DNA of 64,000 nt from an uncultured Gammaproteobacteria bacterium (GCA_964540995.1 CAZIOU010000002.1:43750-107749), one strand, 5' to 3'; numbered from the stretch's first letter, positions 1-47,339 are shown. A program made the numbers and translations. Notes: generated by a model not told the origin, from the sequence alone.

Positions 1-690
1 TATCAGTTTATTGTCAGGTGATACGGTCACTTGTAGATCTAAACCCTTGGTACCAGAAATCGGCTCGACCAGTTTCAGATTGGAACCGTCAGTGTTGCTG
101 GTGACCAACCATTGATTGTTTGCGCTGTCACCTTTCCAGACTGCAGCGATAGCGGTTCCTGAAGGATCGATAGCGAAACTTTCTAATTCTTTGGGTAACG
201 TAATCTGCTTCTTGGTAGTGAAATCATAGAAAATATTGGAACCATCGGGATATTCTAATATGGCCTGCTGTTTGACTGGCGACCAGGTGACATTGTCAAC
301 ACCAAAAAATATTGGGTCACTGTAGGCCTGACTTTTACCGTCAGCATTGAGCAACATGAACTGCGAACTATTGGGTTGGAAATAGACTACACCACTACCG
401 GTAGGTTTGGGACTGACTACGCTATCGCTACTATAATCAGTAACCTGCGTCAATCCTCCGCTGGCCACGGTGTCGACAGTACCGGTGGTAGGGAAATTAG
501 TCGACGGAGTACTGGTCGTACCGGTTGTCGGTATCTGCCCCGGTGTCACTCCTGGTAGCTGACCAGGCGTATTGGTATTGGTCGTCCCCGGTGTAGTACT
601 CGTGCGGAAAAATAACGCGTACAGACCGAAAGCCAGCAAAAGTATGATGAGAACAAAACTTGCTATTAATCCAATCCTACGAATATTCAT
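1..690 (-). CDS. Partial (C-terminus off window) membrane-anchored protein with a beta-propeller-like (TolB/PD40-like) C-region
   Basis: Reverse strand ATG at 688-690 gives MNIRRIGLIASFVLIILLLAFGLYALFF (N-terminal TM) followed by a Thr/Pro-rich linker, then repeats of the form DGS..L, WSPD and DGxxI. The frame stays open to the window edge. It is not in the ORF track because no stop is seen. Confidence 0.5.
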   Translation of the reverse strand, partial: MNIRRIGLIASFVLIILLLAFGLYALFFRTSTTPGTTNTNTPGQLPGVTPGQIPTTGTTSTPSTNFPTTGTVDTVASGGLTQVTDYSSDSVVSPKPTGSGVVYFQPNSSQFMLLNADGKSQAYSDPIFFGVDNVTWSPVKQQAILEYPDGSNIFYDFTTKKQITLPKELESFAIDPSGTAIAAVWKGDSANNQWLVTSNTDGSNLKLVEPISGTKGLDLQVTVSPDNKLI

Positions 691-698
691 ACAAATTA

Positions 699-1229
699 TT
701 AATTACTTGTTGTAGCTTGGCTAACGAATCCATCCCACCAGCTCTTCACCGCACTTAATAAGGCATTGAGCGTTATTTTCGGGTCCAGCAATGGCAAAAA
801 GACGATGAAAAAAATTGATATAACGGTCATCAGCATCCAATCAACAAATAACAGCACCCCCACTTCAGTATCTGTTAGCTTATCCTCGCCAACCAAAGGA
901 ATTTTGAAAGGCAATAAATTGCATACAATCAAACGAATATGCATTTCGAAAAAAAGAAAGAAAGCTCCGACCAACGTTAACCCAGTCACGATACGGCGAA
1001 GGTCTCGAAGTGAACGTAATGCTTGGGCAGTATCATCGACAGTCTGAGTCTCCTCTGTATTTTCTTCTGCTTGAGCCGTCATCGCTTCCAGACGACTGCT
1101 TACTTGCTGCAGCTGGAGCTGACGACTATATTCTTCTTGGACTTGCTGGCGTTGATAATACGGATCCTCTGGATAATCGATACCAGGGCGCAGATTGAGA
1201 CCGGCTGGAGTAGGTAAGACGTCAGCCAT
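699..1229 (-). CDS. Hypothetical membrane protein in the T4SS-like operon (start probably at M11, MADVL)
   Basis: The ORF track gives 699..1259. The internal Met at 1229 removes the overlap with the upstream gene. There is a Gln-rich coiled segment followed by 2-3 hydrophobic helices. Confidence 0.45.
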   Translation of the reverse strand: MADVLPTPAGLNLRPGIDYPEDPYYQRQQVQEEYSRQLQLQQVSSRLEAMTAQAEENTEETQTVDDTAQALRSLRDLRRIVTGLTLVGAFFLFFEMHIRLIVCNLLPFKIPLVGEDKLTDTEVGVLLFVDWMLMTVISIFFIVFLPLLDPKITLNALLSAVKSWWDGFVSQATTSN

Positions 1230-1230
1230 A

Positions 1231-1776
1231 CTATTTCTGCAGCCAGTCAGCCGAATCAACTAACCACTGATCCGCTGACTTAATTAATTGTAATTTTAAT
1301 TGTTGGAAATAAGTAGTGGTTTTCAAGCTGGCATCACGCTCACTTCTTTGTAGTGTCAATACAATAGTCGAGGCAGTAGCGGTCTGCTGAGAAGTCTTGA
1401 TACTGACTACCCTACTCTCGACACCTTGGTACTTGTCGCCGGGTTGAGTAGTACCAGCTGATACTACCTGCCGCAGATGATCGGTCATCAGGGGAAATAA
1501 CTGCTTAATATTTTCGTAAGGATTCTGGTTGGAATAGCTACCATAGCGTTCGGCAAAGTTACGCGCAGCCACCACAGCCTCGCCTCCTACTGGCGGCTGG
1601 ATCTGATCACTACCGGTTACCGTGTTGGTTGGCTGATTGGCAGCTCCGGTATTAAGGACTACATCGGGAGGTCTCTGATCGCGCAGTAACCACCATAATC
1701 CTAGACCAAATAACACCGCCATAATGATAGCGCCGATAATAATTGGTCGTTGGTAGCGTGGCCACAAAGCGTTCAT
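1231..1776 (-). CDS. Hypothetical N-terminally anchored protein in the T4SS-like operon
   Basis: 181-aa ORF. The N-terminal TM segment IIIGAIIMAVLFGLGLWWLL suggests a bitopic protein. Confidence 0.45.
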   Translation of the reverse strand: MNALWPRYQRPIIIGAIIMAVLFGLGLWWLLRDQRPPDVVLNTGAANQPTNTVTGSDQIQPPVGGEAVVAARNFAERYGSYSNQNPYENIKQLFPLMTDHLRQVVSAGTTQPGDKYQGVESRVVSIKTSQQTATASTIVLTLQRSERDASLKTTTYFQQLKLQLIKSADQWLVDSADWLQK

Positions 1777-1781: not shown

Positions 1782-3674
1782 CTAAGAATTACTCAAGGTT
1801 TTGTTAACAGTTTCAGCAAAATCTTTCTTGGCTTGTTCGATCTCCAGCAACTGCTTCGGATCGGACGTGATAAGTTGATCTTCGGTATAGGACGCCATCA
1901 CCTTGATAGCGGCGTGCTTGGCACCGGCGAAGAAGATACCCTCTCCTACTGCACTTTCGAGCAACAAATATTTCTCTCCTTCTGTCAGTAAGAAAGTTTT
2001 CTGAATATTATTGATGGACGCCGGAGATTGCTTGAGCAGCATCTGCATCGATGAGTTCGTTACGATCGCCTGACCATAGGGGGACAACAAAAAGTCATTG
2101 ACATCTTGGGTAATAGTCGTGATGCCCAGATAATATTTGCGACATCGTTTCACCAGAGCGTAGATAAATTTGGCACTATCTTCATGCTGCATCAGCCACC
2201 AGGCCTCATCAATAATCAGGAGACGTTTCTTGACTGAAGAACGAACAATATTCCAGATATAATTGATGATGGTGTAAATTGCGATCGGGCGTAATTCGTC
2301 TTCTAGATCACGGACACTAAATACTACTAGCTGATTATCAATATCAACATTGGTAGGGGCATTAAACAATCCTGAGAACGTACCTTGCGTATATTTCTTA
2401 ATGCGCAAAGCAATGTCCTCTCCTCCCACCATACCCATCAGTACTTCCTCGAAATCGGACATCAATGGCATACTTCTCTGACTCCAATCTGATCCAGGTG
2501 TAATATCTTTCTTGGCATAAGTCTCCAGCAAAGCTCGATCAACGATCGAGTCCTCTTCATTGGTCAGCACTCCTACCATCAAGCGAACCAGACCCTTCAA
2601 GGTAATAACCGCACTGCGCAAGATATCTTCCGGTCGAGCGTCTCCCAGCTTACGTGGCAAGTCAAAAGGATTAAGCTTACTTTCCGCGTTGAGAGATAAA
2701 TTCACGTAGGTGCCTCCAACCGATTCAGATAAGTGCAAATACTCTTTTTCCGGATCAATAATGATAATATCAACGCCTAACATCATACTGCGAAGGACTT
2801 CCAATTTGACGGCGTAGCTTTTGCCAGCACCAGAGGTAGCGAAGACCACTGAATTGGCGTTCTGCAAACTGAATCGATCGAAGATAATCAAGCTGTTATT
2901 GTGTCGGTTAATACCATACATAATTCCGTTGTCGGACGTTAGCTCTGAGGAGACAAATGGGAATGAAGCTGCCGCTGGAGAACTACTCATATTGGCCGTC
3001 ACATAGAGCTCGTCATTACCCAAAGGCAGAGTCGAATTGAAGCCCTGCTCCGACTGATAGAAGGCTCGTCGTGACATCACCAGATGCGCGCCCAACAGAT
3101 TCTCTATCTTATCCGAAGCGCTATCTAAGCCTTCTTTGGTTTCCGAGTAGATCGTGATATAGAGCGCATATTGGAAAAATTTCTCCGTCCCCTGACTTAA
3201 GGAGTCACGTAATGATTCAATATCAGCCAGCGCCGTTTCTTGCACCGGATCACGTGGTGCTCCTTTCTCCCGATCAGATATAATCTGCGCTTCGATGACT
3301 CCAACCTTCTTCTTCAATTGCTTCAGCACGGTCGTACTATCGACGGGATAGAAGAACATCGCAATATCCAAAGGCAAACTATAATTGATAATCGGAGCAA
3401 ACCAACTAATCGTCACATACCGAGGATAGGCAATGACAAAGATCGTTCGAGCAAAAAGTGGTCCCAGTCGTAAATGATTAACATCAACTTGGAAGGACGA
3501 CGGTGCGATGATATCGCGGATGTTAACCACTCCCTGACGGAAAAACTTTTCCGCTTCTAGGACACCAATTTCTTCTTTGTTCTTCTCACGTATCTCCTCT
3601 TCCTGCTGATAGACTGACTTTGGTTGCGTATCAGTGGCAGAATAGGTACGTTTGAGTTCTTTGGGTTCTATCAT
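1782..3674 (-). CDS. virB4: VirB4/TraE/PrgJ-like type IV secretion ATPase, catalytic (C-terminal) part
   Basis: Walker A is VVFATSGAGKSY and Walker B is LLIIDEAWWL, the latter being the VirB4/TrbE signature DEAW. The 630-aa length fits the ATPase half of VirB4. Its start overlaps the upstream ORF's stop (ATGA). Confidence 0.8.
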   Translation of the reverse strand: MIEPKELKRTYSATDTQPKSVYQQEEEIREKNKEEIGVLEAEKFFRQGVVNIRDIIAPSSFQVDVNHLRLGPLFARTIFVIAYPRYVTISWFAPIINYSLPLDIAMFFYPVDSTTVLKQLKKKVGVIEAQIISDREKGAPRDPVQETALADIESLRDSLSQGTEKFFQYALYITIYSETKEGLDSASDKIENLLGAHLVMSRRAFYQSEQGFNSTLPLGNDELYVTANMSSSPAAASFPFVSSELTSDNGIMYGINRHNNSLIIFDRFSLQNANSVVFATSGAGKSYAVKLEVLRSMMLGVDIIIIDPEKEYLHLSESVGGTYVNLSLNAESKLNPFDLPRKLGDARPEDILRSAVITLKGLVRLMVGVLTNEEDSIVDRALLETYAKKDITPGSDWSQRSMPLMSDFEEVLMGMVGGEDIALRIKKYTQGTFSGLFNAPTNVDIDNQLVVFSVRDLEDELRPIAIYTIINYIWNIVRSSVKKRLLIIDEAWWLMQHEDSAKFIYALVKRCRKYYLGITTITQDVNDFLLSPYGQAIVTNSSMQMLLKQSPASINNIQKTFLLTEGEKYLLLESAVGEGIFFAGAKHAAIKVMASYTEDQLITSDPKQLLEIEQAKKDFAETVNKTLSNS

Positions 3675-4348
3675 TGGCTCAACGATAATTGGTTAATATC
3701 TTCCAGTGGCTGACTCTTGGTCATAGTTGGATTATAGCTATTATAGTAGAGCTCAATTAAAGCCTGTGTATCCAGACGTTGTACCTGCAGTCCCATACTC
3801 GTCAGTCCCGAGGAGATGAAAATAGCACGCTTAGTCAGCTCGCGAGAATAGGTATCAAATTTATCGCGTCCCAAGGTAATCCTCCGAGCAGTGGAGAAAG
3901 CATCCATCAGGCGTTCCCAGTATTTACGTTTCAAATCGTGTAATGGATTATAGGAGACAACAACGAAAAACTTCTTACTCATAATGTCTTCCAGTTCCAA
4001 TAATTCGGTGACAAAATTGCGATAATCGGCGGTCTGCAATCGTAATAACTCATTGGTGTGTTCACGTTCAGTCTTGCGTAGACGATCGAGATATTCATCG
4101 ATATTAAGCGGGCGAGATTGCACCACTATTTGCAGTGGCATACTGAGCGAGTTGAGAAAATTGACATAGGAACCAACCATTGCTTCCTGCTCGTCTTCTG
4201 ATTTGAGATCGAAGTTCACCGAGGATACAATCAAGACAGCTCGTACCGTTCCATCACGCATCACTACGACGTCTTCCTTGATCTCGGCAATGTCCAGATA
4301 ATGCTGGGCCGAAGCCAAGGGATTTTTCTTATGATTATTTTTGGCCAT
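3671..4348 (-). CDS. VirB4 N-terminal domain encoded as a separate ORF
   Basis: The block YLDIAEIKEDVVVMRDGTVRAVLIVSSVNFDL resembles the N-terminal region of VirB4/TrbE proteins. Its stop overlaps the ATG of the ATPase ORF (ATGA). The probable start MAKNN is at 4348. Confidence 0.5.
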   Translation of the reverse strand: MAKNNHKKNPLASAQHYLDIAEIKEDVVVMRDGTVRAVLIVSSVNFDLKSEDEQEAMVGSYVNFLNSLSMPLQIVVQSRPLNIDEYLDRLRKTEREHTNELLRLQTADYRNFVTELLELEDIMSKKFFVVVSYNPLHDLKRKYWERLMDAFSTARRITLGRDKFDTYSRELTKRAIFISSGLTSMGLQVQRLDTQALIELYYNSYNPTMTKSQPLEDINQLSLSQ

Positions 4349-4793
4349 AAACAGTTTGATTGGTGAAGTTAGCCTGCTCCTCTCCTCGATACGCACCGCC
4401 GGTATCGACGACTAGAGCTAATTCTGACAATTTACGCGGAGTTAGACGAGGTTTAGTTGCATAAGAGTCGTCTATCTTGACCGGCTGTTTCATCGGCTCC
4501 GACACTACATCGTCTTCTTTCTGCCAGACGCGTAAATCCGGTTTACCGAATCGAGATAAAAAATTAAGTATAAAAATGTGCATTGGCGTCCCGTTGATTT
4601 TGAGAAAGGCGAAGCTACCACCGATAGCCAAAATAAAGACAGAAAATAATAGGAACAAATTAAATTCGAACAACTTATAGGTAGCAAAGATAAAGATGCC
4701 AGTCACAATCAAGGTGATAAATTGGCGCGTGGTAATACTGCCAATAATCTTATCTTCGATGTCAATAAATTGTGGCACGATAAATTTACGCAT
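4335..4793 (-). CDS. PrgI/VirB3-like small T4SS membrane protein
   Basis: The N-terminus MRKFIVPQFIDIEDKIIGSITTRQFI followed by two TM helices is the PrgI-family pattern, and the gene sits immediately upstream of VirB4. Confidence 0.55.
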   Translation of the reverse strand: MRKFIVPQFIDIEDKIIGSITTRQFITLIVTGIFIFATYKLFEFNLFLLFSVFILAIGGSFAFLKINGTPMHIFILNFLSRFGKPDLRVWQKEDDVVSEPMKQPVKIDDSYATKPRLTPRKLSELALVVDTGGAYRGEEQANFTNQTVYGQK

Positions 4794-4796
4794 AGC

Positions 4797-5939
4797 TTAG
4801 AAGCGTAGCTGTTTATTCAGATCAGTCATAGCTTCAAATTCTTCTGCTGTCAGGTAGGGTTTATTTTCCTTCTGCAATTCCTGGACAACCTGCGACAAAT
4901 TACGACTATGCTCCAAGCCGTGATGACCCATCGTTAGATAAGTTTGATATACCTGACTCGTGCGCCAAGCAGTCATGCCTTGTGCTTTGCGTGCCAGAGA
5001 TTCTTTGGCCAGATTATTGATACGTTGCAGTACTTTGGCGGCCCGCACACGCGGATCAGCATCAAGCTGACGGAATTCGTCAACTGTCATAGCAGCTAAT
5101 TCATCGATCCGACTCATCACTTTGGCAGGACGATTAGCTCGTATCGGTGCGCTAACTTTGATCGGCTCTATAGTGACTGCTCGGCGCACCTTGGGTAATT
5201 CTGAATCGTTAAAGCTAGGCGCTACTGGCTTAGGCGGAAGTATAACCGTCGGTTTGGGGGCTACTACTGGTTTCTCAACCGCTGCTTGTACTACTGGTGG
5301 TTTAACCTCGATTGGCTCCGGCATAACGGGTGATATCTCGTCTGTTTCCATCGTGCGTTCGGCGGATCCGCGGATCACTACACCGTCAGCGGCTTCAATC
5401 TTATCTTTGAGACTTTTAACAATAACCATCACTTTATCAGCCAGACTAGGATCAAATGAGAAGTCCTGAATCAGTAACTCTTTGGTAATAACGAAACTTC
5501 GCACTTGTCGGAAGAAACTTAGTAATAAACTAACAAATTTCTCCTCTTGCTCTGGAGAAAGTTTGACTTTATTCTTTTCGATCAATTTGGCAGCGATTTT
5601 CTCAATACTATATTTTCGCTTCTCAGCTGCCGCCGTCAGATACCCATTAATTTTGGCCATTTCTGCTTCCAAATCCGCTTTATCATCGGGATGAAAATGA
5701 AATTCCGCCACTTCATGCGGTTGTCCGCTGATGGTAGCTGGTAAGAAATGACTATCAACCGCTTGAGAAGCTGGTTGCTGAAAATTAGGCGTTATCACTG
5801 GCGGTGGAGTCGTCTTAGCCGGCGAAGAAACGGCTGCTAGAGCACCGTGTTGCCAAACTTTAAACTGTCCGTCGACATCCTTAACCAAAAAAGATGGATC
5901 CTGGGGAATTATGACTTCAGAATTTGCCATGGGTAGCAA
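4797..5939 (-). CDS. Hypothetical Pro-rich protein, first gene of T4SS-like block 1
   Basis: 380-aa ORF with a PVVxxPK-type proline linker. No motif recognised. Confidence 0.45.
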   Translation of the reverse strand: MLPMANSEVIIPQDPSFLVKDVDGQFKVWQHGALAAVSSPAKTTPPPVITPNFQQPASQAVDSHFLPATISGQPHEVAEFHFHPDDKADLEAEMAKINGYLTAAAEKRKYSIEKIAAKLIEKNKVKLSPEQEEKFVSLLLSFFRQVRSFVITKELLIQDFSFDPSLADKVMVIVKSLKDKIEAADGVVIRGSAERTMETDEISPVMPEPIEVKPPVVQAAVEKPVVAPKPTVILPPKPVAPSFNDSELPKVRRAVTIEPIKVSAPIRANRPAKVMSRIDELAAMTVDEFRQLDADPRVRAAKVLQRINNLAKESLARKAQGMTAWRTSQVYQTYLTMGHHGLEHSRNLSQVVQELQKENKPYLTAEEFEAMTDLNKQLRF

Positions 5940-9496: not shown

Positions 9497-10753
9497 CTAA
9501 TTTGCTCCTTCGATGACAAAATTTTTGGCAACCAATCTAACTTCCCGCAATCTAAATTCGGCTCTCGTCATATCAATGTAAGCCGCCTGATCCCAACCAG
9601 CTTCCGAACAAATCAAGTCTGCAATCATAGCGGTTTCAGCCGGTGAATAGTGTAACTTATCTTGGAGAATAAGCTGAAAGAACAAGACAGCGCTTACCAA
9701 CGTACTATCGGGTTGCCACAGGGACCTAGCTTGATCACTGAAACGGACACTTATGAAGCGGCGAACTATTCCAATGAAGCGCAGATCCGACGAGATAAAT
9801 GTCGCCAGCTGTTTACGCCGAGCTGCCAGTACCAAGGCAGCAATTACTCGATCTTTGTCCTCCACTCCTAGAGCTTCCCAAATAATGTCGGCTAAACGTC
9901 CAGCTTGATCGCCAATCTCAATCTCGATTCCAGACACACTAGCAGAGATACGAGACAGTAAATCTTGTCCGTAGGCGCGGTACTGGTCAGTGATTCGGGA
10001 TACGTCGACAGTGGATATGGAGGGTTGCTTCGGTTGATCGGCCACAGCTTCGACACTGCCGCTGCGAACCGTAACCCGACGACCGTCAATGCTGAAACGG
10101 GCCAACGTACCTTCACCGTAGGAACTAATAAAATTTAAAACATTAGCTTTGTCCTCTGGGGGTAGATTCTTGACATTGACACTACGGATCAAGTATTGGC
10201 TTCGGGCAAGTCCGTCTCTCATCGAAGGACCCATAGCACGAAGGAAATCTTTGAGCCAATTATCTATTGTTGGGTCTTCAACTGGTCCTTGTCCCAAATC
10301 AAGTGGTTGAGCGGTTAACCACAGAGAACGATTATCACCATGTTGCTGTAGGAATTCCTCGGCCGTCGCCACGATTGCACCGTCACTCATTGCTTCTGCA
10401 ACCGGTTGCGGCATTGATCCTTGGGGTAACTGTCCACCCAGACGTTGGATCAGAGTATCGACGCCAGGTAAGTATTGTCTCATGGACCACAATTTACGAG
10501 TAGCTATGGCCAAAGTTAAAGCCCGAATATCAACCGACCCTAAGTCAAGCTTTGATAAGGCAGCCGGCAAATCAATTACTTTCTGCTCGCCAGTGTAAAT
10601 AGTCAATAATACACCTAATACTAATCTCAAGCGTGAGCCGGATAAGTCAAAATCACGAGCAATCGAATCGTTAATTTCGACCGACCCTTCGTTAAATATC
10701 AAATCTTTAAATCCCTCAGGTAATGCCTGAAGTAATTTTGTGTTCACAGACAT
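9497..10753 (-). CDS. Hypothetical protein, last gene of T4SS-like block 2
   Basis: 418-aa ORF with an ATG start, separated by a 3-nt gap from the VirB6-like gene's stop. No motif recognised. Confidence 0.45.
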   Translation of the reverse strand: MSVNTKLLQALPEGFKDLIFNEGSVEINDSIARDFDLSGSRLRLVLGVLLTIYTGEQKVIDLPAALSKLDLGSVDIRALTLAIATRKLWSMRQYLPGVDTLIQRLGGQLPQGSMPQPVAEAMSDGAIVATAEEFLQQHGDNRSLWLTAQPLDLGQGPVEDPTIDNWLKDFLRAMGPSMRDGLARSQYLIRSVNVKNLPPEDKANVLNFISSYGEGTLARFSIDGRRVTVRSGSVEAVADQPKQPSISTVDVSRITDQYRAYGQDLLSRISASVSGIEIEIGDQAGRLADIIWEALGVEDKDRVIAALVLAARRKQLATFISSDLRFIGIVRRFISVRFSDQARSLWQPDSTLVSAVLFFQLILQDKLHYSPAETAMIADLICSEAGWDQAAYIDMTRAEFRLREVRLVAKNFVIEGAN

Positions 10754-10756
10754 AAA

Positions 10757-13336
10757 TTATCTCACATCATCGATAGGGGCTCCACCACGAGCTACCCTCT
10801 TGATATCATTTTCTTTTCGCTGTCGCTTCTCTTCCTCACTCGGTGCTTTGGGTGCTGGTTTGGGACGGGCTGTATCAGGTGTAGGCGTACTAGTTGAAGT
10901 CGTGGCTTCAGCATTGGTTGCCGTAGTACCTCCGCCCCGTGTGGCGTCACTAGCTGCCTCGGCTGAATCATATGGCCCATTGATAATCACTGTATCGTCT
11001 AACGGTCGTACTGTATCATTCTTCTTTTCATTCTCTTTTGACTTATCTTTATCAAGATCCTTGATATATTTTTCAAGTTTATCGAATGATTTTCCTTGTG
11101 TACCGACATTACTCAAATAATCATTTTTGAATAAGCTGGAGGCCAATTTTTGTTGCTCTTTTGCCAATGACTTTGCTGTCTCAAGCGTCGATTCCAAAGT
11201 TGTCAAAGCCGCGATCTTGGCTTTTTCAACCTTCGCCGGATCACCGCTTCGAGCCATATAAGTAAATTGCGACGGTGTCAGGTGTGGAGCTACCTGTTCA
11301 ATACTATCGTCATGTATTCCGGCTGCTTGTTCTGGGGTCAACTTACTTACCAAACTATGAAGTGGCATCAGCGCTTCACGTTTCTCTGAACCATCGTCAT
11401 TAGTACCGACGACCATCTCCTCATCAGATGCGTATTCAGTAATATGAGCACTATCAACCTTAGCCCCCAACTCTCGTATCTCACGCATCCGTTTAACGTC
11501 ATCTCCCTCATCAGCTATACCAACTGCTGCTTGAGTGGCGGTACCAAAATTTCCCTTTTCATTCTTTGTCATCTTGGTGGGCAAGGCAGCCAGCTGCTTA
11601 CCAGTAATACCGACATCGAGAGCGGTATGCATCAAATCACCAGTCCAATCCCAATGAACAGCGTTCTTCTCAAATTCGCCGGATGTATTAAGTGCTGCCA
11701 ATTTTTCTTTCTGTTTCTCCGGTGACAAGACATCGATATATTTCTTAGTGAACTCATTATAGTGGTCCGATACTGGGTCACCAGGGCCAGCACCCTTCAT
11801 GATATTGGCGGCTTTCTTACGTAAATCTTGTTTCTTTCTTGATTCTGCTTCGTAACGTTCATCATCATGTTTGATATCCGAAGCCACACTGAAATGTCCC
11901 CGTTTGTCTAAAGTCATAGCTGCCGCACGAGCTTCCTGCGCATTGACGCTGCCCATCTTACGCTCTAGTTCATTATCAGTTAATGAAGTCATTTGCTTCA
12001 TGAAATTACTAGTCTGCGCAGTCTGCATCTGACGATAAGCCGGGACTGCCTTCTGCAATATCTGGTCATAAGCGAAAGCTCCGGTGGCGTATTTCATCGG
12101 GCCGCTGGTGGCAACGCCGGCAATATCCTTAAACACCTTATTATCACCCACCCGTTTCACGGTCGCCAAAGCACCAGATCCCGCACGACCCAACGTACCA
12201 CCCAATAATTTATTGTCCGCCAAAGAAACACCACCGGCAATGCTACTACCGATACCTCGTGTGGCTGCCAATGCGCCCATACCGGCGGTAGCTGCAGCTC
12301 CAACTGCCATTCCCTTGAGCGCGCCACCAAGCTTACCTGACCATTTATTGGCCATAGCACCGCCAGCGACACTAAGCTCCTTAGCTACCGTCAGTCCGCC
12401 GATCAATAACGAGATACCAACCAAGAAACGAAGTATTGTTGCTACCAAGGGATTATTAGAAGGAGTCGGACAAGCCGTCTCACCAGTAACAGCGGCGGAG
12501 TCCGTCGCTTGATTGAGCTGGCCTTGTGCGCCCTCCTCTGTCTTCTGAATCGTAAAAGAAGAGTCCTGTCCCTTACCGGCGACAATTTGTGACAAACAAC
12601 CCGATGCAGTCGGTTGTTGAACTACAGAGAAGCTTAGCCAGAGGAAGAAAGCTAGTGCCGGTCCAACTGCTGTATAATTACCCAGCTCTTTCCACCACCG
12701 TTGATAGTAGGTAAATCCCGTCGGCCAAGCACTCAGTAAGAAGGCTATCGGTGCCAAGATAATAATGAAACCAAAAGCAATAATACGATACAAGAAGAGC
12801 AAGGTAATAATAACGATGACGATCAAAGCGATCACCATCATGATGCCGCCCAACATAATCTGAACAAAGACGGATAAACCGCCAACTACTTGCGCGCCAG
12901 CATTACCTTTCACTAACTGTAGAACAGGAGTTAGGCCAAGTAATTCCGGAAACCCAGCTTGGAGAGAATTTAGGAAGGCATTAACGAAGGCCAGAGTAAC
13001 CACCTGTGAAACTTCAATGAAAAATAAGGCGATTGATTTACTGAAGTTAATCAGGATCGCCATCAATACGAGACGTCGCAGATTCTGCTGATAACCATAA
13101 CGACCACTACGTAATATTGTACCCAACGCTATCACCAGTAAGACAATAATAAACAGCATGTTGCTGAAATCACGTGTCACCACCCAGCCGCGATTGATAA
13201 TGTCCTCGTTAGCAAAGTTCTGATAACTCAAGATAATAACTAAGATACGACTAACAATCGTAAGAGCCCAGCCGGGGATATAGATCCACAGCAAGTACCA
13301 AATATGCGATAAGACGTCAATTATTCCTGAAAACAT
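10757..13336 (-). CDS. VirB6/TrbL-like polytopic T4SS membrane protein with a long C-terminal extension
   Basis: The N-terminal 400 aa contain at least 6 TM helices, typical of TrbL/VirB6. After that comes a Gly/Ala-rich stretch (GAMANKWSGKLGGALKGMAVGAAATAGMGALAA) and a 350-aa charged C-terminal tail. Confidence 0.55.
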   Translation of the reverse strand: MFSGIIDVLSHIWYLLWIYIPGWALTIVSRILVIILSYQNFANEDIINRGWVVTRDFSNMLFIIVLLVIALGTILRSGRYGYQQNLRRLVLMAILINFSKSIALFFIEVSQVVTLAFVNAFLNSLQAGFPELLGLTPVLQLVKGNAGAQVVGGLSVFVQIMLGGIMMVIALIVIVIITLLFLYRIIAFGFIIILAPIAFLLSAWPTGFTYYQRWWKELGNYTAVGPALAFFLWLSFSVVQQPTASGCLSQIVAGKGQDSSFTIQKTEEGAQGQLNQATDSAAVTGETACPTPSNNPLVATILRFLVGISLLIGGLTVAKELSVAGGAMANKWSGKLGGALKGMAVGAAATAGMGALAATRGIGSSIAGGVSLADNKLLGGTLGRAGSGALATVKRVGDNKVFKDIAGVATSGPMKYATGAFAYDQILQKAVPAYRQMQTAQTSNFMKQMTSLTDNELERKMGSVNAQEARAAAMTLDKRGHFSVASDIKHDDERYEAESRKKQDLRKKAANIMKGAGPGDPVSDHYNEFTKKYIDVLSPEKQKEKLAALNTSGEFEKNAVHWDWTGDLMHTALDVGITGKQLAALPTKMTKNEKGNFGTATQAAVGIADEGDDVKRMREIRELGAKVDSAHITEYASDEEMVVGTNDDGSEKREALMPLHSLVSKLTPEQAAGIHDDSIEQVAPHLTPSQFTYMARSGDPAKVEKAKIAALTTLESTLETAKSLAKEQQKLASSLFKNDYLSNVGTQGKSFDKLEKYIKDLDKDKSKENEKKNDTVRPLDDTVIINGPYDSAEAASDATRGGGTTATNAEATTSTSTPTPDTARPKPAPKAPSEEEKRQRKENDIKRVARGGAPIDDVR

Positions 13337-13340: not shown

Positions 13341-16300
13341 TTAGGATTGTGGTTTCTTAATCTGAATCATCGAGTCATTGCTTGAGCCATAGAATATATA
13401 GCCTGCCTGATTACCTGCCGGCCCAGTACAACCCTGCCCCACCGGTCCCCAAGCAGTATTAGAACACCAACCCCAGTTATCCTGCACCCTGGCTCGTGGC
13501 CTATAACAGGCATAGCCAGCCGGACAACCGGAGATACCCGACGATGCGCCGTCAAAAGCTACATTATACTGATAGACATGGAAGTAGCTACGAATAGTCG
13601 GGTCACAGCCTTGTGATGTACCGGCAAAATCCATCGTCGTCTGGAAAGCTGGATTGGATACATTGGGACGGATTATTTGCGTCGGATCACAGACAGACCA
13701 ATTATTTTTATAATAACCGACATTGGCCTGACGCGATCCATCACCCCAATCAACTTCAATCGAACGCAATGGCATACGATCCTTATAAGCTGAAGCGTAG
13801 AAGGAAACCGTAGCCAACATAGTTGGACTTTGGTTCTCGATGATCGGACCAGAAGATTTATCATTGACCAAGAAATTACTGGTAGGGCCGAGATCGCAGG
13901 TTATGCTAGAAGCAGAGCAAACTGGTTGCGCAATAATCGGACCGAAGTCTGCCTGTGCATAGCGACTTGATCTCGATGCAGCTGCTATCTGATCCTTCTG
14001 ACTTTGCGGAATAGTCGTTCCATTGGCATTACGTACGGCAAAACTTTGTGACATACTAGCATCAAGTGGTAGCGCCTTTTCATCAATAGCCTGCGTCGAA
14101 CCAGCTATACAGGTTGGATCGGTGTCAGGGTTACATAACGGCTGATACGAATCTCGTATAGGCGTACAATAAGGTCGCTTGTCATTTCCGCCGTTAATAG
14201 AAACCTCTACTTGATTCGCGTATTTACAGATTGCATCGGGCGCTTGGCAAATTTCATTACCAGCATTTAGTCTCTGTCCTAGATTATTGGTTATAGCTGT
14301 TGCACAGCTCTGAACTCTCGTTAGTTGGTTAACTCCCGTTGTCGAAGTATCCGAGAAGTCCACACCAACACAGTACTGACCCTGTGCCGGAGCGCAGAAA
14401 GTCTTGGAATCATAAGCCTCGGCCAAAGCATCGCAATCATCGAATGAATGCGTACAGCTGATAACAGTGCACTTAGAGGCATCACGTGAGGAACAACAAC
14501 GCTGTGCTTGCATATTACAAGTTAAAGACTCACGGACCTGACACTGACTGCGGGCATCAACCTGAGGACGCTCACAGCTTGTCTGACCACAGGTAGCATT
14601 GGCCGGACAATCACTATCAGAAATACACAGCGCCTGATCCGATGAAGTGCACCGTTTGGCACATTGACCTTGACCAGTGGTACAGACAGCACAGCTTATC
14701 TCACTGGGTGATATAAGCTGATAGCAACCACCCGTAGTTAGATCCACTTGCCAGCCAGCCGGACAAGAGCTGCAAGATGTAGCAGTGCCCCAAGCGGAAT
14801 TGATACAGGTATTGGAAATCGTCTGACAGACATTACTCTTACTCTGATCAGTTGGATTATTACGATCATAACGCAAGGTGCACTCACCGTTAATGCTGCC
14901 AGTAGCACCACAACGATTACCACCGAAGGGTCCGCCACTACATACCGGATAAGCGCAGGACTCGCCAGCTTCAAAACGATAAATTCCAAATAATTTTTGG
15001 TAAATCTGCTTCAAGCGGTTAACACCTGTAACATACCATTCTTTAGTTTCTATGCTAGCCGAAGGAGAATCGCCAAATGAGGGATGAGTCCAACCCTTAA
15101 TATAGAGGTCGCTCTTACTATCTGACAAGAGTCGGCAATCTGCTTCGTCATTGGCACAAGCATACGGACTACCCGCTCGCGGCACCACTCCCCGATCCTG
15201 CACCGACAGAGCGCCGAATTGTTGCGGTACAAATCCTGATCCCGGCACCGCAGCGCCAAATGGCGTGTCATCACGATCAAGGGTATAGCCTTGGCCAGCA
15301 GTCTTGAGGCTGACGACGAAAGGCTTGCCATCAGGACGATAATTGGCCCAGAAGGAATTGGTCTTAGCAGCATTATCTCCTCGCTCATTTACAGCTGCTG
15401 TGAGGTACGTACACAAGGAACGTGGCCAACTTTCTGCTTGTATGAAATCACCGCGTGAGCCATCACAAGTACTGTTCGAGTTGGTACAAGAGAGATAGTC
15501 AGTGGACCCATTATATCGTCCTAAACAATGTTCTGAATATCCGATCCAAACATTATCATCTCTAACCCAACCCAATATGGTCGGATTATCAATACAGTTG
15601 GAAGTAATCTTATTGGTTACAGGATCTCGGTAAGCAGCGATAGGATATACATCATGGGCGTCGCCAGTATTATCCTTCCATGGAAGTATTATATGTTCTT
15701 CATGAGTCCATTCACCACCCATTCCGCCATTAGTTGCATTAGAGCTTGATAAACTACCATCACGATTCATCTTGCTATAGTAATCACCAACATCCTTAAG
15801 CTTCATCGGGGCCGTCCTCCAATGATACCTGTCTTCCACGAGCTGCATTTCCGTGCAGTAGTAGACCGGAGCTTTGAAATTATAGCCAGCGTCTCGATTC
15901 TGATTGAAATAATCAATACCACCGATGGCGTTATCAACTGGCAACCAAGAAAGACAAGCGTACTCTGACGATGAGCCATTGATAGATGATGATAGATCAG
16001 GCTCTAGACAATAGCCACCCCAATTGAGGAAAATATCGCTGCGTGATAAGTAGGTTGGATTACCACCAGGACACTGATCAGAAATCGAAGACTTCGTGTC
16101 GCTGTTGGATTCAATGACAGTACACGACCTGCCATCAAGGTTACCACCCTGACAGATACAAGAAGATATCTCTCCGCTACCCAAGGAAGCGTTGAGCGAA
16201 TAGAATCGAGTAGCCCCGCCGGAACCATACTGTAATTTGTAATATCCCACTTCACAGGAAGCTACCGCGCTATCACAAATATTAGCTTGTTGAAAACCAA

Positions 16301-19300
16301 ATTTGACTCGTCGTTGTTGACCAGTATTACTGGAAACGACGCTCTGCGGGAAAGGCGCTTCAGTTTCAGCAAATCCACGTGTGGTCGGCTTAATCACAAA
16401 TGGCGAAGTCAGGTCAAATCGACTGCCATCGATGCCATTGACACACAACGGGCTACCGCTGACACCGAAGATGGCACCTGTTGATTGACCTTTGCCATCC
16501 AGCGTACCGCATTTCAATTGACCATAGTTAGTGGCTAATTGGTTACATTCAGCTGTAGTACAATTCTCGGCACGAACCAAACGGAAATCAGGATTGGCCG
16601 CATCAGGACCATTCTTAGCGGCATTAATACTGACATCAACCAAACGTAGGTGATCTACTGGATAGCGATTAAAGAGTGAGTAGCCAGAATAATCCAGAGC
16701 GTCATAGCGGACATCGCGCGTCGTATAAGCTGAATAATCAACTTTGGAGGTACTCTCTGGTAACCAATGGGCACAGTTCAGACTGCCATTGTTGGAGCTA
16801 TACTGGTCGCAGAGCGCTACTTCGGTACAGATCTGACGCTGTGAATTGGTCTGGGTATCGAAGATCTGCGAGCTCGTCTTACAGGTTAACCATTCGGCAC
16901 ACTGACGATCACGGGAGACCTTGATGATACGATTAGCGTCATTGGTACATGCTCGCAGGATCGGATCGGCCGAGCTCGGATCGCAGACTACCGGACTGAC
17001 GCCTTTGCCATTGGCGCGTTCACTATAGAAATAAGTTAAGAAACTATTGTATTGTTTTACTGGATCATTAGGATCACTGAAGAGGATACAGCCCTCATTC
17101 TTGCTTACTTGACCATTACAGGAACTATCATCAATAGACTTATTATTGAGATAGAAATAGGACTGAGCCTTACGCAGACTTAGGTTGGAGAACTGCACTT
17201 CATTGGGCGTACTGTTGTTATCACAATCTCCTCCACTCGGACAATCCAGGGACAAACGGAACGTTGGTTCACACATAACCAATTCATCGCCTTGTGAGGC
17301 AGATCCCAGATCGGCAGTAGCCGTCAGTGTCTGAACCGTTGATTTATCTTGTATGTCAGCACCAGCATAAAATTCAGTCAGATGATCACGACGATTACCG
17401 CGGGAGTCAGTAGTGTCATAGCCAATAGCTAGATTACAGGTGTAGCCACTGGCACATTGAGTGTTGCTACTACATGGCGTCTGGGTCATATCAGTAGCTG
17501 ACTCACAGTAACCATCAGCCTTCTTATAACAAATTTCCTTGCCCGGACAATCACTATCAGTGATACAAGTATTAGCATAATCGACGATGGTGCCGTATTG
17601 GCTGTTGCCGCTTTCTACTACCGTGGCACAATAATCTTTGTCGTACGGACTATCCCAGAGACAGCGCATCACCACTTGAGCACTGGCTTTGCCTTGGGTG
17701 CCGACATTGAGATTCTTGACGGTGACATCAGCACTAATGGTATAGACGTCGGCGTTGTTGATCGGCTTAGCACCGAGGACATCTTTGGTAGTATTGAAGA
17801 AACGCTGGAAGATCAGAGCTAATCCATGCGGTTGTGATAATAAGGTTGCAGAGGCGGTCTGTGGATTAGCCACAAAGGTTTGATCGAGAGGCAAGGCGTT
17901 GCCACTAGACTGCCAGACTCCCCACTTGGCTTTGGGTCCTGTCGGATCGTTGAAAGTTGGATTGGATAAGAAATTATCTCCATTGGTAGCTTGTGTGTCG
18001 ATGAATTCGGAGCACTGATTCTGTGAACCAGGACACAGGCCGGCGGAATTATTGAATTGATTCTCGGCAGCAGTATAGATCTTATAGTCATCCAGTGGGG
18101 TGACATTGTCAGAATAACAGCCTACCGGTGACTTGCCGGCTTCCAAACTATCAGTCTGGAACCAGCCCGTCTGAATGACGCCATTAATACTAACACCGTC
18201 TTTGTAGGTACACGTACGATTGCCTGGATCACTATAATAATGAGACACACCATCACTGCCGGTATATTCCTGACAGTATAAACCCTCGTTCTTACACAGC
18301 TGATCACTATATTGATCAGGATCATTGATCTTGAATACCGTCTGATAGGATCTGACGTAGCGTGGATCTTGCTCCGGCAAATTGCGGTTAATGTTGGGTT
18401 TGCCGAGCGCCTGACAACCTTGGTATTTCGGTTCGCAGAATTTCTTACTATCGACTACGACGTATTCTAATGAATCTGCTGGTACGGTGACTTGTGACTT
18501 ATCGCCAGCGTTAAATACTTGTTCATAAGGATAGTTGGAGTTTTGGGTATTGATCACTGCCTGACAACCAACCGCCTCCTGACGACAGATCTGGGAGAAT
18601 GAGCGCAAAGCATAATTCTTGTTGTCGGTACCTTTGTACAACTGACAACCAAGGTTGGCACCAGCAAATGGCAGATCGCATGAGGCTGGTGTTTTCCAGC
18701 TATCACGGACCAAGAATAGATTAGAAACTGATTCTCGCAGAATGATGTTATCGATGAAGGTACCGCTGGCACTAGGAACCAAGGTTAAATTGGCTGCTTC
18801 CGGATTGACCACTTGATCAATCAACAATGGTCCGACTTTATACAGTTGCCAATCTCCAGCAGTAGCTACCGTAGTAACAGCAAATTGACATGGACCTTGA
18901 CCACATTTAGTCTGCGTTCCATTAGTATCGCCGAGGTAAGCTCGTAATTCGGCTCCGTTCTGACTGGTCTTGAGCCAGAAGCTTAGATAATATTCCCGAC
19001 CAGCAACCAACTGATTGCTCAAAGGATAGACTACGACTCCTGGTGCGGTGACAGCTAAAGAATGACCGCCAGAACTTGCTGCTTCGCTCGATAAAGCGAT
19101 TTTACCACTACCTTGGCCAGCCCATGGAGCATAGGTAGCGCGTCCTTCGAACGTATCGTTGATAATCGTACGAACATTACTACTCTGATTACCACGGAAT
19201 TCAGTACAACGTACATTGCTGGCGGAGCAACTGCGACTTTCGGACGCCAAGCCATTGTAGGTTTGATTACCGTCGCTGCGTCTGTAAGGATGACAATCAT

Positions 19301-30335: not shown

Positions 30336-31658
30336 TTGGTAACCATAGCGCTCCACGCGGTGCGCTTCGTCACCTTACTCTCTGGTCCTATTGGTGCCTT
30401 TTTTTTGTTGGGAGGCAAAGGTATAAAATGGTCATTAAAAAAACTACTACTCAAACCAGCGCTCTTCATCTATCTGCGTGGTTTGAAATTACACAAAATA
30501 CTCACCAACAGTACCGCCAACAGTAATAGCAAATATCTTTACTGGATCAAACGCTTCGGTTATCCAACGACCGCTATTATTATCGTCTTACTGACCGCAA
30601 CCAATAATCTCACCGCCCGCGATCTGGTGCGATCAGACTTTGATACTCCCACTCGACTAGCGCAGATCATTGGTAATCCAGAGGAAGATTTCGTCACCTA
30701 CAGCACGGAGAACGCCTTGTCGCGACCCGCGCCCACGGTGACCAATTATCTAGAGGATATGGGCGCCCTAGACAATCCTATCGCTTCCTCACCTTTCGGT
30801 GATAATGATACCGACACGTTTCTTAGTATCACTCAAGGCGACACTGCTTTGGAAGCTCCCAGCATCAATGATATAGAAAGTTTACCGACCGCGCGTACTC
30901 GTAATGTCGTCTACACAGTGCAATCTGGAGACACGATCAGTGAGATCGCCCAGAAATTTAATATCAGCACCAACACCATCCTCTGGGCCAATGATTTAAC
31001 GACGCGATCCTCACTCAAACCAGGTCAGAAGCTAACTATCTTACCGACATCCGGCACGGTTCATACCGTCAAGGCTGGAGAATCGCTAGCAGCCATTGCC
31101 AAAAAATATCAAACCACTGTCGATCAAATTATCGCCTTCAACAAATTATCTAGTGAACGTGATATTCGTAGCGGCGAGAACCTGATTATTCCTGGCGGTA
31201 TCAAGCCCGCTACCGCGGTAGTTAAAGCTTACCAGCCACCAACAACAGCTAGTGTGTTGAAAAATATTATCGGCTCACCCGCTACTCAGGACAGCGGCGC
31301 TACGCTACTATGGCCATCGGGAAGTCATAAGATTACCCAATACTTCTCCTGGCGACACACTGGTCTCGACATCGGTACACCGATCGGATCGGCTGTCTAT
31401 GCTTCCGAAAATGGCCGTGTCACAGCTGCCGGCTGGAATAATAGCGGGTATGGTTATTATGTAGTCATTGATCATGGTAATGGCATGACCACGCTCTACG
31501 CTCACAACTCTGCCCTCTTGGTCAAAGAAGGCCAGAGTGTCTCCCGTGGTCAACAAATCTCCGAATCTGGCTCTACCGGAAGATCGACCGGACCTCATTT
31601 ACATTATGAAGTACGTGTTGGCGGTCGCCGTACCAACCCACTCAATTACATCCGATGA
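30336..31658 (+). CDS. LysM-domain M23 family peptidoglycan peptidase
   Basis: Two LysM repeats (YTVQSGDTISEIAQKFNIS..., HTVKAGESLAAIAKKYQTT...) and an M23 core (HTGLDIGTPIGSAVYA...HLHYEV). The track start is TTG. An alternative in-frame TTG around 30483 lies before the TM segment AIIIVLLTA. Confidence 0.8.
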   Translation: MVTIALHAVRFVTLLSGPIGAFFLLGGKGIKWSLKKLLLKPALFIYLRGLKLHKILTNSTANSNSKYLYWIKRFGYPTTAIIIVLLTATNNLTARDLVRSDFDTPTRLAQIIGNPEEDFVTYSTENALSRPAPTVTNYLEDMGALDNPIASSPFGDNDTDTFLSITQGDTALEAPSINDIESLPTARTRNVVYTVQSGDTISEIAQKFNISTNTILWANDLTTRSSLKPGQKLTILPTSGTVHTVKAGESLAAIAKKYQTTVDQIIAFNKLSSERDIRSGENLIIPGGIKPATAVVKAYQPPTTASVLKNIIGSPATQDSGATLLWPSGSHKITQYFSWRHTGLDIGTPIGSAVYASENGRVTAAGWNNSGYGYYVVIDHGNGMTTLYAHNSALLVKEGQSVSRGQQISESGSTGRSTGPHLHYEVRVGGRRTNPLNYIR

Positions 31659-46376: not shown

Positions 46377-46403
46377 AAAGAAATTGGAAAATTTTTGTAA
46401 CCG

Positions 46404-46565: not shown

Positions 46566-46591
46566 GAAATCACTCGCATATAACTAGTCTT

Positions 46592-47281: not shown

Positions 47282-47339
47282 AGTATGTTCGCGACATCAC
47301 ATAACACCAGATATCCGATTCGCGAGCGAGATAATATTT

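Follow-up and report, generated by a model that had tools for sequence, protein, structure and literature searches.

The block at positions 1782-5939 (minus strand) of the 64-kb stretch of DNA analysed here, called the window below, is in our judgement (probability of about 0.88) the energising and inner-membrane module of a chromosomal, MPF_FATA-derived Patescibacteria T4SS, in which the VirB4 motor is normally encoded by two genes. Nearly all Patescibacteria, which are ultra-small bacteria, carry such a T4SS, and the one described here would belong to a Komeilibacteria-like genome. The VirB4 N-terminal domain is predicted to be divided between two proteins: its first half would come from a TrsD/TraC-like protein of 225 aa, and its second half from a protein of 630 aa that also holds the RecA-like ATPase domain. 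Both genes would be co-transcribed with the PrgI (VirB3-like) gene just upstream and the VirB8-like gene just downstream, and the overlap of stop and start probably couples translation, which may lead to matched amounts of both proteins. In the R388 structure the VirB4 N-domain is contacted by the tails of VirB3 and VirB8; by analogy, the TrsD-like piece is most likely what docks the ATPase hexamer onto PrgI/VirB3 and the VirB8-like and VirB6-like membrane proteins. The arrangement is real but ordinary: it was already published for Patescibacteria in 2025 (PMC12102498), and nothing in the locus is unusual for this phylum.

Gene content of the locus

All genes of the locus lie on the minus strand. 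The operon starts with a conserved protein of 377/380 aa (4797..5939) without a Pfam or NCBIfam match; an ORF of 381-489 aa precedes the PrgI-like gene at the same position in relatives (L003-L008, L014 and L015). It is followed by the PrgI/VirB3-like gene (4335..4793), whose 152-aa product has two hydrophobic helices and, at 28.1 bits (E 3e-6), passes the Pfam PF12666 (PrgI) threshold of 27. Its orthologues carry annotated PrgI matches. Both this score and the position of a small two-TM protein immediately before the VirB4 N-terminal piece agree with VirB3/PrgI, and the PrgI-like gene named in the sequence-only reading is confirmed. Next come the ORFs of 225 aa (3671..4348) and 630 aa (1782..3674). 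The former is counted from the ATG at 4348, while a mechanical ORF list lets it begin further upstream, at a GTG (4396).

Downstream of VirB4 we find a bitopic membrane protein of 181 aa (1231..1776). It has no sequence family match in Pfam or NCBIfam, but its AF2 model (pLDDT 74) shows an N-terminal TM helix (6-32), a linker and an alpha+beta NTF2-like domain. The top Foldseek match is the VirB8 domain of PrgL (7aed, E 8e-5, TM 0.58-0.61), followed by TrwG/VirB8, TcpC, CagV and TraM, with the CaMKII hub and other generic NTF2-fold proteins scoring in the same range. By its predicted structure, the protein is VirB8-like. The next gene (699..1229) encodes a protein of 176 aa, or 186 aa when counted from an upstream TTG, with an acidic, Q-rich N-terminus and two C-terminal TM helices; it has no Pfam or NCBIfam match, is called as 176 aa in L012, and its orthologues hold the same position in relatives. 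The last ORF (1..690) translates to the 5' part of a membrane-anchored, beta-propeller-like protein of 404 aa and is truncated by the start of the window. L012 has the full 404-aa gene, followed by a gene for a 210-aa DsbA/thioredoxin-like protein.

A further, putative component is encoded 7 kb upstream, namely an extended, polytopic VirB6/TrbL-like membrane protein of 859 aa (10757..13336). The protein itself has no direct Pfam match, but 8 of 33 aligned homologues match TrbL/VirB6 (best E 5e-7) and several carry annotated PF04610/PF19590. The gene has the same placement relative to PrgI, TraC-like and VirB4 in L014 and L015, where it is directly followed by orthologues (414-416 aa) of the conserved 418-aa protein encoded here at 9497..10753, for which neither Pfam nor NCBIfam gave a family match. 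Judged from these homologues and the synteny, the VirB6-like gene belongs to the same conserved super-locus. For the TrsD-like as well as the VirB6-like protein, all close homologues come from Patescibacteria.

The sequence-only reading had described the 630-aa and 225-aa ORFs and the PrgI-like gene correctly, and the limits of its block hold these three. The same limits also take in the 377/380-aa ORF, which it did not mention, and exclude the downstream membrane proteins, which lie below 1782. Those proteins and the beta-propeller ORF are present as it had described. Its description of the T4SS as minimal undersells the locus, given the VirB8-like and putative VirB6-like components.

GC content is even over the locus, in which rpsF-ssb-rpsR-efp and a methyltransferase gene lie between the T4SS genes. 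This order is kept in distant Patescibacteria, which indicates vertical chromosomal inheritance.

A VirB4 motor in two pieces

The identity of the 630-aa protein as a VirB4 ATPase with Walker A and B motifs, including DEAW, stands. Walker A is found at A279-TSGAGKS286 (ATSGAGKS) and Walker B/DEAW at residues 485-493 (LLIIDEAWW); the protein matches the VirB4 C-domain in PDB 4ag5 with E 2e-43, and scores 361.5 bits against a cutoff of 325 for NCBIfam NF045971, the CD1110 family VirB4 of the MPF_FATA class. No complete N-terminal domain is found in one polypeptide, with the 630-aa protein corresponding to positions 181-729 of the 752 in the CD1110 model. Its first ~45 residues are an extra charged segment, and residues ~45-245 form the second half of the VirB4 N-domain.

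The 225-aa product matches the NCBIfam TrsD/TraD family (NF041427) over positions 21-157 of 201 with E 1e-8, but its 35.3 bits are far below the curated cutoff of 200 bits. It is a remote relative and lies outside this narrow NCBIfam subfamily. Pfam PF26593 (TraC-like) is annotated on the identical product and on 120 of 120 listed homologues; this match comes from the annotation of the identical product and was not returned by our Pfam scan of the window ORFs. The PF26593 annotation goes together with a stand-alone length in the range of ~200-230 aa and a gene position between the VirB3-like gene and virB4. A profile of the family aligns to pGO1 TrsD with an hhalign probability of 86.5% (E 4.6e-6). 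In a Foldseek PDB search with the AF2 model, which has moderate confidence (pLDDT 69), the top 14 matches are all TrwK/VirB4 chains, at a low TM-score of 0.36. The protein has 1074 homologues (clusters), of which the best 120 are 163-234 aa long, nearly all of them 221-234 aa; among the 3381 representatives of the family, 149 of the top 150 span 132-443 aa.

Whether the two products tile one VirB4 was suggested as a check, and the profile matches indeed cover full-length models without overlap. On the CD1110 model the 225-aa ORF takes positions 10-119 and the 630-aa ORF 181-729 of 752, and on the Mbov_0397 VirB4 model they take 97-245 (E 5e-10) and 285-893 of 894. Coverage of Pfam TraC_F_IV runs from 21 to 183 and then from 276 to 374, of 375. 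The fused 805-aa VirB4 of Lactococcus aligns from its residue 225 onward to residue 50 of the 630-aa ORF, and its residues 34-113 are colinear with the 225-aa family, although this hhalign match is weak (probability 2.3%); for the R. albus VirB4 the hhalign E-value is 2e-5. As far as sequence and model comparisons can tell, the 225-aa product corresponds to the N-terminal half of the VirB4 N-domain, made here as a stand-alone protein. The sequence-only reading, which took it for the VirB4 N-domain, was right about the homology to the VirB4 N-terminus and overstated the extent, as only the first half of the domain is present.

In another reading, the 225-aa protein would be a paralogue that has diverged from the VirB4 N-terminus and has a separate function (assembly chaperone, regulator or substrate adaptor, for example), without replacing the missing half of the N-domain. 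Some family members have C-terminal extensions up to ~440 aa, and Gracilibacteria TrsD homologues do not adjoin virB4 (PMC12102498), which would fit such a role. We consider this unlikely, because the 630-aa protein matches full-length VirB4 profiles only from position 181 onward and lacks precisely the region to which the 225-aa protein is similar, the gene order and tight overlap are conserved, and the same clade contains a natural in-frame fusion with the TrsD-like part first and VirB4 second.

Conjugation functions and likely role

The absence of VirD4, relaxase and VirB11 from the window, as the sequence-only reading had it, is upheld. None of T4CP, relaxase and VirB11 was found in 44 Pfam-scanned ORFs of at least 122 aa, which include every ORF of at least 372 aa; the scan left out five ORFs of 126-262 aa, two of which had NCBIfam only. 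NCBIfam likewise gave no relaxase or T4CP, and tblastn of the window with two VirD4 and two relaxases found nothing. The association with a relaxase and VirD4/TcpA that marks a conjugative T4SS is therefore not seen within 64 kb. This does not show that the genome has no coupling protein, since most Patescibacteria genomes have VirD4-like genes, which lie at a great distance from virB4 (PMC12102498). In the same survey relaxases were rare, 109 in 3035 genomes, and the T4CP was encoded far away (PMC12102498).

An integrated conjugative element or plasmid whose coupling protein and relaxase lie outside the window, with the locus as its mating-pair-formation part, is a very unlikely alternative. 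The descent of this VirB4 clade from monoderm conjugation systems, the VirD4-like genes elsewhere in most Patescibacteria genomes, and a RecD2-like helicase in a low-GC island at 43.6-46.4 kb could be cited for such an element. The relaxase-family matches of this helicase cover its helicase part only, however, and the missing conjugation genes, the uniform GC, the conserved housekeeping surroundings and the scarcity of relaxases in the survey all speak against it. A non-conjugative role, as proposed in the sequence-only reading, is the published consensus inference for these systems. The whole machine is probably no conjugation apparatus and would more likely move proteins or other macromolecules between epibiont and host.

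A genuine split gene

The junction of the two VirB4 genes reads ...agccaATGAtagaa, with the TGA stop of the 225-aa ORF overlapping the ATG of the 630-aa ORF by 4 nt, which bears out the reported ATGA overlap. The stop of the PrgI-like gene and the ATG of the 225-aa ORF overlap by 14 nt. A Shine-Dalgarno motif is absent before every start of the operon, and its lack before the ATPase gene is therefore uninformative. In relatives the junction varies between ATGA, TAATG, a stop followed by 1-2 nt and ATG, an 8-nt overlap and a 10-nt gap. Both ORFs show low pN (0.04-0.16) against pS of 0.75-0.9; for the 225-aa ORF pN is 0.06-0.16 and pS is saturated. The relatives mostly have two ORFs and not the single intact gene that had been considered, with one rare exception. 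This is a natural fusion of 898 aa (P0246) on 5 contigs, with the two places shown coming from two different samples, which adjoins PrgI and an SLT hydrolase and has a linker of ~85 aa at the split position.

The tiling, the two-ORF homologues and the purifying selection agree that the two-gene arrangement is genuine, as one of the options in the sequence-only reading had it. Its other option, a frameshift or pseudogenisation, taken here as one VirB4 gene recently disrupted by a frameshift or nonsense mutation, or by an error of assembly, might be suggested by an ATGA overlap inside an apparent single protein and by the fused VirB4 of other lineages, but it is already refuted by comparative data: 1074 clusters show the two-ORF state, nearly all with a conserved length of ~226 aa (lengths from the best 120), independent assemblies from two samples gave the identical sequence, the junction types of relatives differ and fall in different relative frames, purifying selection on both ORFs is strong, and two ORFs are the rule among homologues, with the same boundary in Bacillota megaplasmids and in pGO1 (TrsD/TrsE).

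Comparison with known systems

Single-chain VirB4 proteins, such as the CD1110 family of Clostridia and Lactococcus elements and TrwK of R388, have the same domains in the same order, whereas here they are divided over two polypeptides and the 630-aa protein opens with the extra charged residues. The same split is found in PrgI/TraC-like/VirB4/M23-peptidase loci of large, mostly non-mobilizable plasmids of Bacillota (Pontibacillus, Geobacillus, Paenibacillus and others), where an ORF of 274-318 aa overlaps one of 621-636 aa. Among the non-Patescibacteria VirB4 proteins of the plasmid collection, the closest (36% identity) is found on these plasmids. They differ by a longer N-terminal piece, Shine-Dalgarno sites, an M23 peptidase 1-2 genes downstream and their plasmid location.

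The S. aureus plasmid pGO1 which, like TraD/TraE of pIP501-type plasmids, represents the MPF_FATA conjugation systems, has the gene order trsC(135)-trsD(227)-trsE(672), that is, a VirB3-like protein, a TrsD of ~227 aa and a VirB4 of ~670 aa, as here. Its trsC/trsD overlap is also 14 nt, the TrsD|TrsE boundary falls at the split point seen here, and TrsE, to which the 630-aa protein aligns over residues 36-617 (E 3e-42), starts at the same point. The similarity is remote, with 25% identity for TrsD and 23% for TrsE and the NCBIfam TrsD cutoff missed. In contrast to the locus described here, with its ATGA overlap and no Shine-Dalgarno, pGO1 genes are preceded by Shine-Dalgarno sites, trsD and trsE lie 14 nt apart, and the pGO1 operon, on a conjugative plasmid, includes VirD4 (TrsK), a relaxase, a CHAP hydrolase and a topoisomerase, none of which is found in the window.

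The closest likeness in arrangement is to the Patescibacteria-clade T4SS. The locus differs from these systems in that no VirB2-like pilin gene or array is recognisable in the window and that the sole candidate peptidoglycan hydrolase (M23+LysM, 30336-31658) lies 25 kb from the T4SS block; it is otherwise indistinct from them. Quinonero-Coronel et al. (2025) reported 2272 TrsD homologues, 1664 of them adjoining virB4, and found TrsD to be remotely homologous to the VirB4 N-terminus (PMC12102498). For Patescibacteria they described TrsD adjoining virB4, together with PrgI, VirB6 and, in class ABY1, VirB8, no relaxase and a distant T4CP (PMC12102498). The T4SS of Ca. Southlakia epibionticum (Saccharibacteria; SEML1_0006-0019), in which neither a coupling protein nor a relaxase can be recognised, is essential for epibiotic growth (Wang et al. 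2023, PMC10633639). The locus shares with this clade the TrsD homologue directly before virB4, PrgI/VirB3 upstream, a putative VirB6-like gene and, as in class ABY1, a VirB8-like gene, the chromosomal setting amid housekeeping genes (with ksgA in the window) and no relaxase or T4CP nearby, and also the vicinity of competence and recombination genes, such as ComF in L012 and RecG in L014 and L015.

Operon layout and identity of the ATPase

The ORF list shows a tightly packed operon on the minus strand of the window. From its upstream end it comprises a 377/380-aa ORF (4797-5939), a PrgI-like 152-aa ORF (4335-4793) that passes the Pfam PrgI threshold with 28.1 against 27 bits, a 225-aa ORF (ATG at 4348, end 3671), the 630-aa VirB4 ORF (1782-3674), a 181-aa ORF (1231-1776) and a 176/186-aa ORF (699-1229/1259) whose product has two TM helices. 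It continues past the window start with a gene whose ATG is at 690 and whose translation carries a membrane anchor at its N-terminus ahead of a beta-propeller-like body. The block delimited by the sequence-only reading, 1782-5939, contains the ORFs as described there, but it also includes the 377/380-aa ORF, which went unmentioned, and excludes the downstream membrane proteins. The PrgI-like protein shows no similarity to TrsC of the Staphylococcus aureus conjugative plasmid pGO1 by BLASTP.

By sequence, the 630-aa protein is unambiguously VirB4. Residues 245-603 match the VirB4 C-terminal domain in PDB 4ag5 (E 2e-43), Pfam P-loop_TraG is matched at 4e-27, and the NCBIfam model 'VirB4-like conjugal transfer ATPase, CD1110 family' scores 361.5 bits, above its cutoff of 325. 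The Walker motifs are directly legible in the translation, with ATSGAGKS at 279-286 for Walker A and LLIIDEAWW at 485-493 for Walker B. These matches bear out the Walker motifs and the upstream PrgI-like gene reported from sequence alone, as does the junction itself, agccaATGAtagaa, for the ATGA shared by the stop codon (TGA) of the 225-aa ORF and the start codon (ATG) of the 630-aa ORF. One gene further up, the 152-aa ORF stop and the 225-aa ORF ATG overlap by 14 nt. Shine-Dalgarno-like motifs are absent at the operon starts 5939, 4793, 4348, 3674, 1776 and 1229 and in the Patescibacteria loci L004-L008, L014 and L015; clear GGAGG-type sites are found at the Bacillota counterparts L001, L002 and pGO1. 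Inspection of such motifs is uninformative here because none of the operon's genes has one.

The 225-aa ORF as a piece of VirB4

Judging from profile alignments and a predicted fold, the 225-aa ORF is the first half of the VirB4 N-terminal domain, which agrees with the sequence-only reading. On the NCBIfam models of full-length VirB4 it covers positions 10-119 of 752 (CD1110) and 97-245 of 894 (Mbov_0397, E 5e-10), and the 630-aa ORF covers 181-729 and 285-893 of the same models. Likewise, the 375 positions of Pfam TraC_F_IV are matched at 21-183 by the first and at 276-374 by the second, so that the two products tile a full-length VirB4. A fused Lactococcus VirB4 of 805 aa, whose gene directly follows a PrgI gene, aligns from residue 225 onward to the 630-aa protein from residue 50 onward (E 8e-51), and its residues 34-113 are colinear with the 225-aa family, with a weak hhalign match. 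The 949-aa VirB4 of Ruminococcus albus matches the family with an hhalign E of 2e-5.

When the AlphaFold2 model of the 225-aa protein (pLDDT 69, from a 45-sequence alignment) is compared with the PDB, the 14 top-ranking structures are all TrwK/VirB4 chains of the R388 T4SS (best E 1e-3, probability 1.0, TM 0.36). A sequence search of the PDB returned nothing at E<=10, and our local Pfam scan gave sub-threshold TraC_F_IV alone, without PF26593; the family name 'TraC-like' (PF26593) is taken from precomputed matches. In the 630-aa protein, residues ~45-245 make up the second half of the N-domain (Pfam CagE_TrbE_VirB 121-196 of 204), and therefore the break falls within the N-domain and not between the N- and C-domains.

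A split gene or a broken one

On the strength of their conservation, the TrsD-like and VirB4 genes are a real and ancient two-gene arrangement. At E<=1e-3 we find 1074 homologues of the 225-aa protein; lengths among the best 120 run from 163 to 234 aa, nearly all 221-234, and every one of the 120 carries PF26593. Where a source is named among these 120, it is a Patescibacteria lineage, with Komeilibacteria closest (92%). Searching 1.8 billion representatives with a profile gave 3381 members, and 149 of the top 150 are 132-443 aa in length.

The sequence-only reading had left undecided between a genuine split and a frameshift or pseudogene. A recent frameshift or decaying gene is contradicted by several observations. 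The gene order is kept as two ORFs in six close relatives, found by a genome-contig search with a single protein, and their junctions vary between ATGA, TAATG and a stop followed by 1-2 nt and ATG, in different relative frames. In more distant Patescibacteria, where the wider synteny comes from exact-protein look-ups, the two ORFs overlap by 8 nt or lie 10 nt apart. Nonsynonymous divergence is low (pN 0.06-0.16 for the 225-aa ORF and 0.04-0.10 for VirB4) against a pS of 0.75-0.9; since synonymous sites are saturated, dS is inestimable and pN and pS are given alone. The identical protein pair was also assembled independently in two sequencing runs, and the same split is found in Bacillota and pGO1. 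All of this argues for a genuine split gene.

Fused orthologues in relatives come down to one natural fusion inside the Patescibacteria clade. This 898-aa protein, P0246, consists of a TraC-like part (2-223), a linker of ~85 aa and a VirB4 part (311-890) 47% identical to the VirB4 of the window. It occurs on five contigs and adjoins PrgI and an SLT hydrolase; two of its occurrences are from two different samples. We regard it as Rosetta-stone evidence, at the level of sequence, that the two chains function as a single unit.

A Komeilibacteria MAG has 92-93% protein identity to the window, by which the window genome is Komeilibacteria-like. The relatives' contigs L003 and L005-L008 are titled 'uncultured Gammaproteobacteria bacterium', yet they carry the Patescibacteria locus at 74-100% protein identity, and the assemblies appear to be taxonomically mislabelled.

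Other components and the wider locus

In its AF2 model (pLDDT 74) the 181-aa protein consists of a TM helix at the N-terminus, a disordered linker and a domain of alpha+beta type. The PDB structures that it matches best are the pCF10 PrgL VirB8 domain (E 8e-5, TM 0.58-0.61), TrwG/VirB8, TcpC, CagV and TraM; scores in the same range are reached by the CaMKII hub and further proteins of the NTF2 fold. From the model we read it as a VirB8-like component. In L003, whose TrsD-like protein is 100% identical to that of the window, a single 273-aa ORF (10573-11394) replaces the 181-aa and 176-aa genes after VirB4, which suggests that the VirB8-like region changes rapidly or has undergone fusion. Further upstream, an 859-aa protein (10757-13336) has Patescibacteria homologues, 8 of 33 with a Pfam TrbL/VirB6 match, and is read from these as a putative extended VirB6-like protein.

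The block delimited by the sequence-only reading and the upstream block belong together as one unit, a super-locus that is conserved in distant Patescibacteria. Its first part holds the VirB6-like gene, a ~415-aa partner, a methyltransferase, rpsF-ssb-rpsR-efp and a 380-490-aa protein; its second part holds PrgI, the TraC-like gene, VirB4, the VirB8-like gene, a small membrane protein and the ~405-aa propeller protein. On the source contig, a DsbA/thioredoxin-like gene, a glycosyltransferase and a ComF-like gene lie beyond the window start, and in relatives RecG comes next. The last two neighbours agree with the published siting of ABY1-class T4SS loci near comF and recG (PMC12102498). No VirB2-like pilin gene was found among the small ORFs in the intergenic gaps by a hydrophobicity scan, nor by tblastn with pGO1 TrsB/CagC.

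Immediately upstream of the VirB6-like gene lies a giant 3028-aa protein (13341-22427, minus strand), whose matches are all sub-threshold (CBM_4_9 with 23.6 bits, below the cutoff of 25.9, and DUF7107). Its place beside the T4SS genes hints at a surface adhesin or a protein associated with the T4SS.

Conjugation functions in the window

A Pfam scan of 44 ORFs of at least 122 aa returned housekeeping functions, including KsgA, LeuRS, IF-2, ClpP, RNase Y, a ComM-like protein, an ABC transporter and a DEAD helicase, and no VirD4/TcpA, relaxase or VirB11/T2SSE family. The Pfam scans take in every ORF of at least 372 aa and leave out five of 126-262 aa, two of which were covered by NCBIfam only. 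Searching the window by tblastn with two VirD4 and two relaxases gave no match other than a weak one to the P-loop of VirB4, as expected. The absence of VirD4, relaxase and VirB11 noted from sequence alone thus stands, as a result for the window alone. Reading the locus as non-conjugative is plausible and not new.

A low-GC island at ~43600-48000 (GC 0.35-0.38 vs ~0.45 elsewhere) may be acquired DNA. It encodes a 919-aa RecD2-like SF1B helicase (43617-46376), whose first ~410 residues are without a family match, followed by two ORFs of 229 aa and 206 aa, also without one. We rejected the helicase as a relaxase candidate, as TraA/TraI relaxase models matched in its helicase part only. Elsewhere in the window, a 968-aa leucyl-tRNA synthetase (27232-30138, minus strand) contains, after its editing domain, an inserted NUDIX hydrolase domain at residues 394-523 (E 3e-14). 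Two neighbouring 79-aa ORFs (35995-36234 and 36239-36478, minus strand), 4 nt apart, look like a putative toxin-antitoxin pair. A large secreted protein at 61.9-64.0 kb (plus strand) has the signal-anchor start MNTLMSKIITFIIVL and continues past the 3' end of the window.

Relation to published work and proposed mechanism

Every element of this finding has already been described, and the window is a further instance. A survey of 3035 Patescibacteria genomes found VirB4 in 2417, as a clade nested in MPF_FATA, and TrsD as the most abundant accessory component, with 2272 homologues, 1664 of them adjoining virB4 (Quinonero-Coronel et al. 2025, PMC12102498). [quoted passage not shown] The T4SS of Ca. 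Southlakia epibionticum has no recognisable coupling protein or relaxase, and Tn-seq showed its genes to be essential for epibiotic growth (Wang et al. 2023, PMC10633639), the TrsD homologue among them (PMC12102498). A 2025 FEMS review treats the Patescibacteria T4SS as an established new branch of the superfamily.

The two VirB4 genes are co-directional and overlapping, evolve under purifying selection, jointly encode one VirB4 domain set and are flanked by VirB3-like and VirB8-like genes. The stop/start overlap probably couples their translation. In R388, structures have established that the VirB4 N-domain anchors the ATPase to membrane components. By analogy, the TrsD-like chain most likely completes the N-domain in trans and anchors the ATPase hexamer to the PrgI/VirB3, VirB8-like and VirB6-like proteins. 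The machine probably moves proteins or other macromolecules in support of host-dependent growth and does not serve conjugation, as published work has inferred.

It is tempting to go further and propose that an obligatory two-chain VirB4 marks a distinct, largely non-conjugative T4SS lineage, spanning Patescibacteria chromosomes and relaxase-less Bacillota/Actinomycetota megaplasmids, in which the N-domain split is functionally important and not neutral. We consider this unlikely, with a probability of roughly one in five. If it is true, the split might for instance let membrane adaptor and motor assemble or turn over separately, or differ in stoichiometry, in a pilus-bearing monoderm machine serving host-dependent growth. 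The Patescibacteria T4SS is near-universal in a huge host-dependent radiation and essential for epibiotic growth in the sole system tested. The arrangement of TrsD, VirB4 and PrgI and the absence of a nearby relaxase or coupling protein have already been surveyed across ~3000 genomes, and we add no new element to these.

Comparison with plasmid systems

The same split is found on Bacillota megaplasmids, where PrgI is followed by a protein of 274-318 aa and a VirB4 of 621-636 aa, in overlapping ORFs. Loci on a Pontibacillus plasmid (L001, 10769-17030) and a Geobacillus plasmid (L002, 10666-19342) carry a PrgI-like gene, annotated with the PrgI family in L002 only, together with a TraC-like gene, a short VirB4 and an M23 peptidase. 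No VirD4 or relaxase was found within 12 kb of either locus, and these plasmid loci may belong to a non-conjugative split-VirB4 lineage of Bacillota. Among the plasmid records matching the TraC-like/TrsD-like protein, 78 of 103 are typed non-mobilizable; for VirB4 matches in general, 3654 of 5000 are typed conjugative.

pGO1 is a classical conjugative plasmid and has the split as well: trsC (135 aa) and trsD (227 aa) overlap by 14 nt, and trsE (672 aa) comes next. The 225-aa family profile matches its TrsD with an hhalign probability of 86.5% (E 4.6e-6), and a six-frame search of the whole window with TrsD returned the 225-aa ORF as the sole match. TrsE residues 36-617 align to residues 54-592 of the 630-aa ORF (E 3e-42), and both proteins start at the same architectural point. 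The modest value of our analysis is a clean demonstration that a TrsD-like protein and a short VirB4 tile one full-length VirB4, with the break point between TrsD and TrsE of pGO1 shared and a rare natural fusion alongside, which favours treating TrsD as part of the VirB4 motor in models of these machines.
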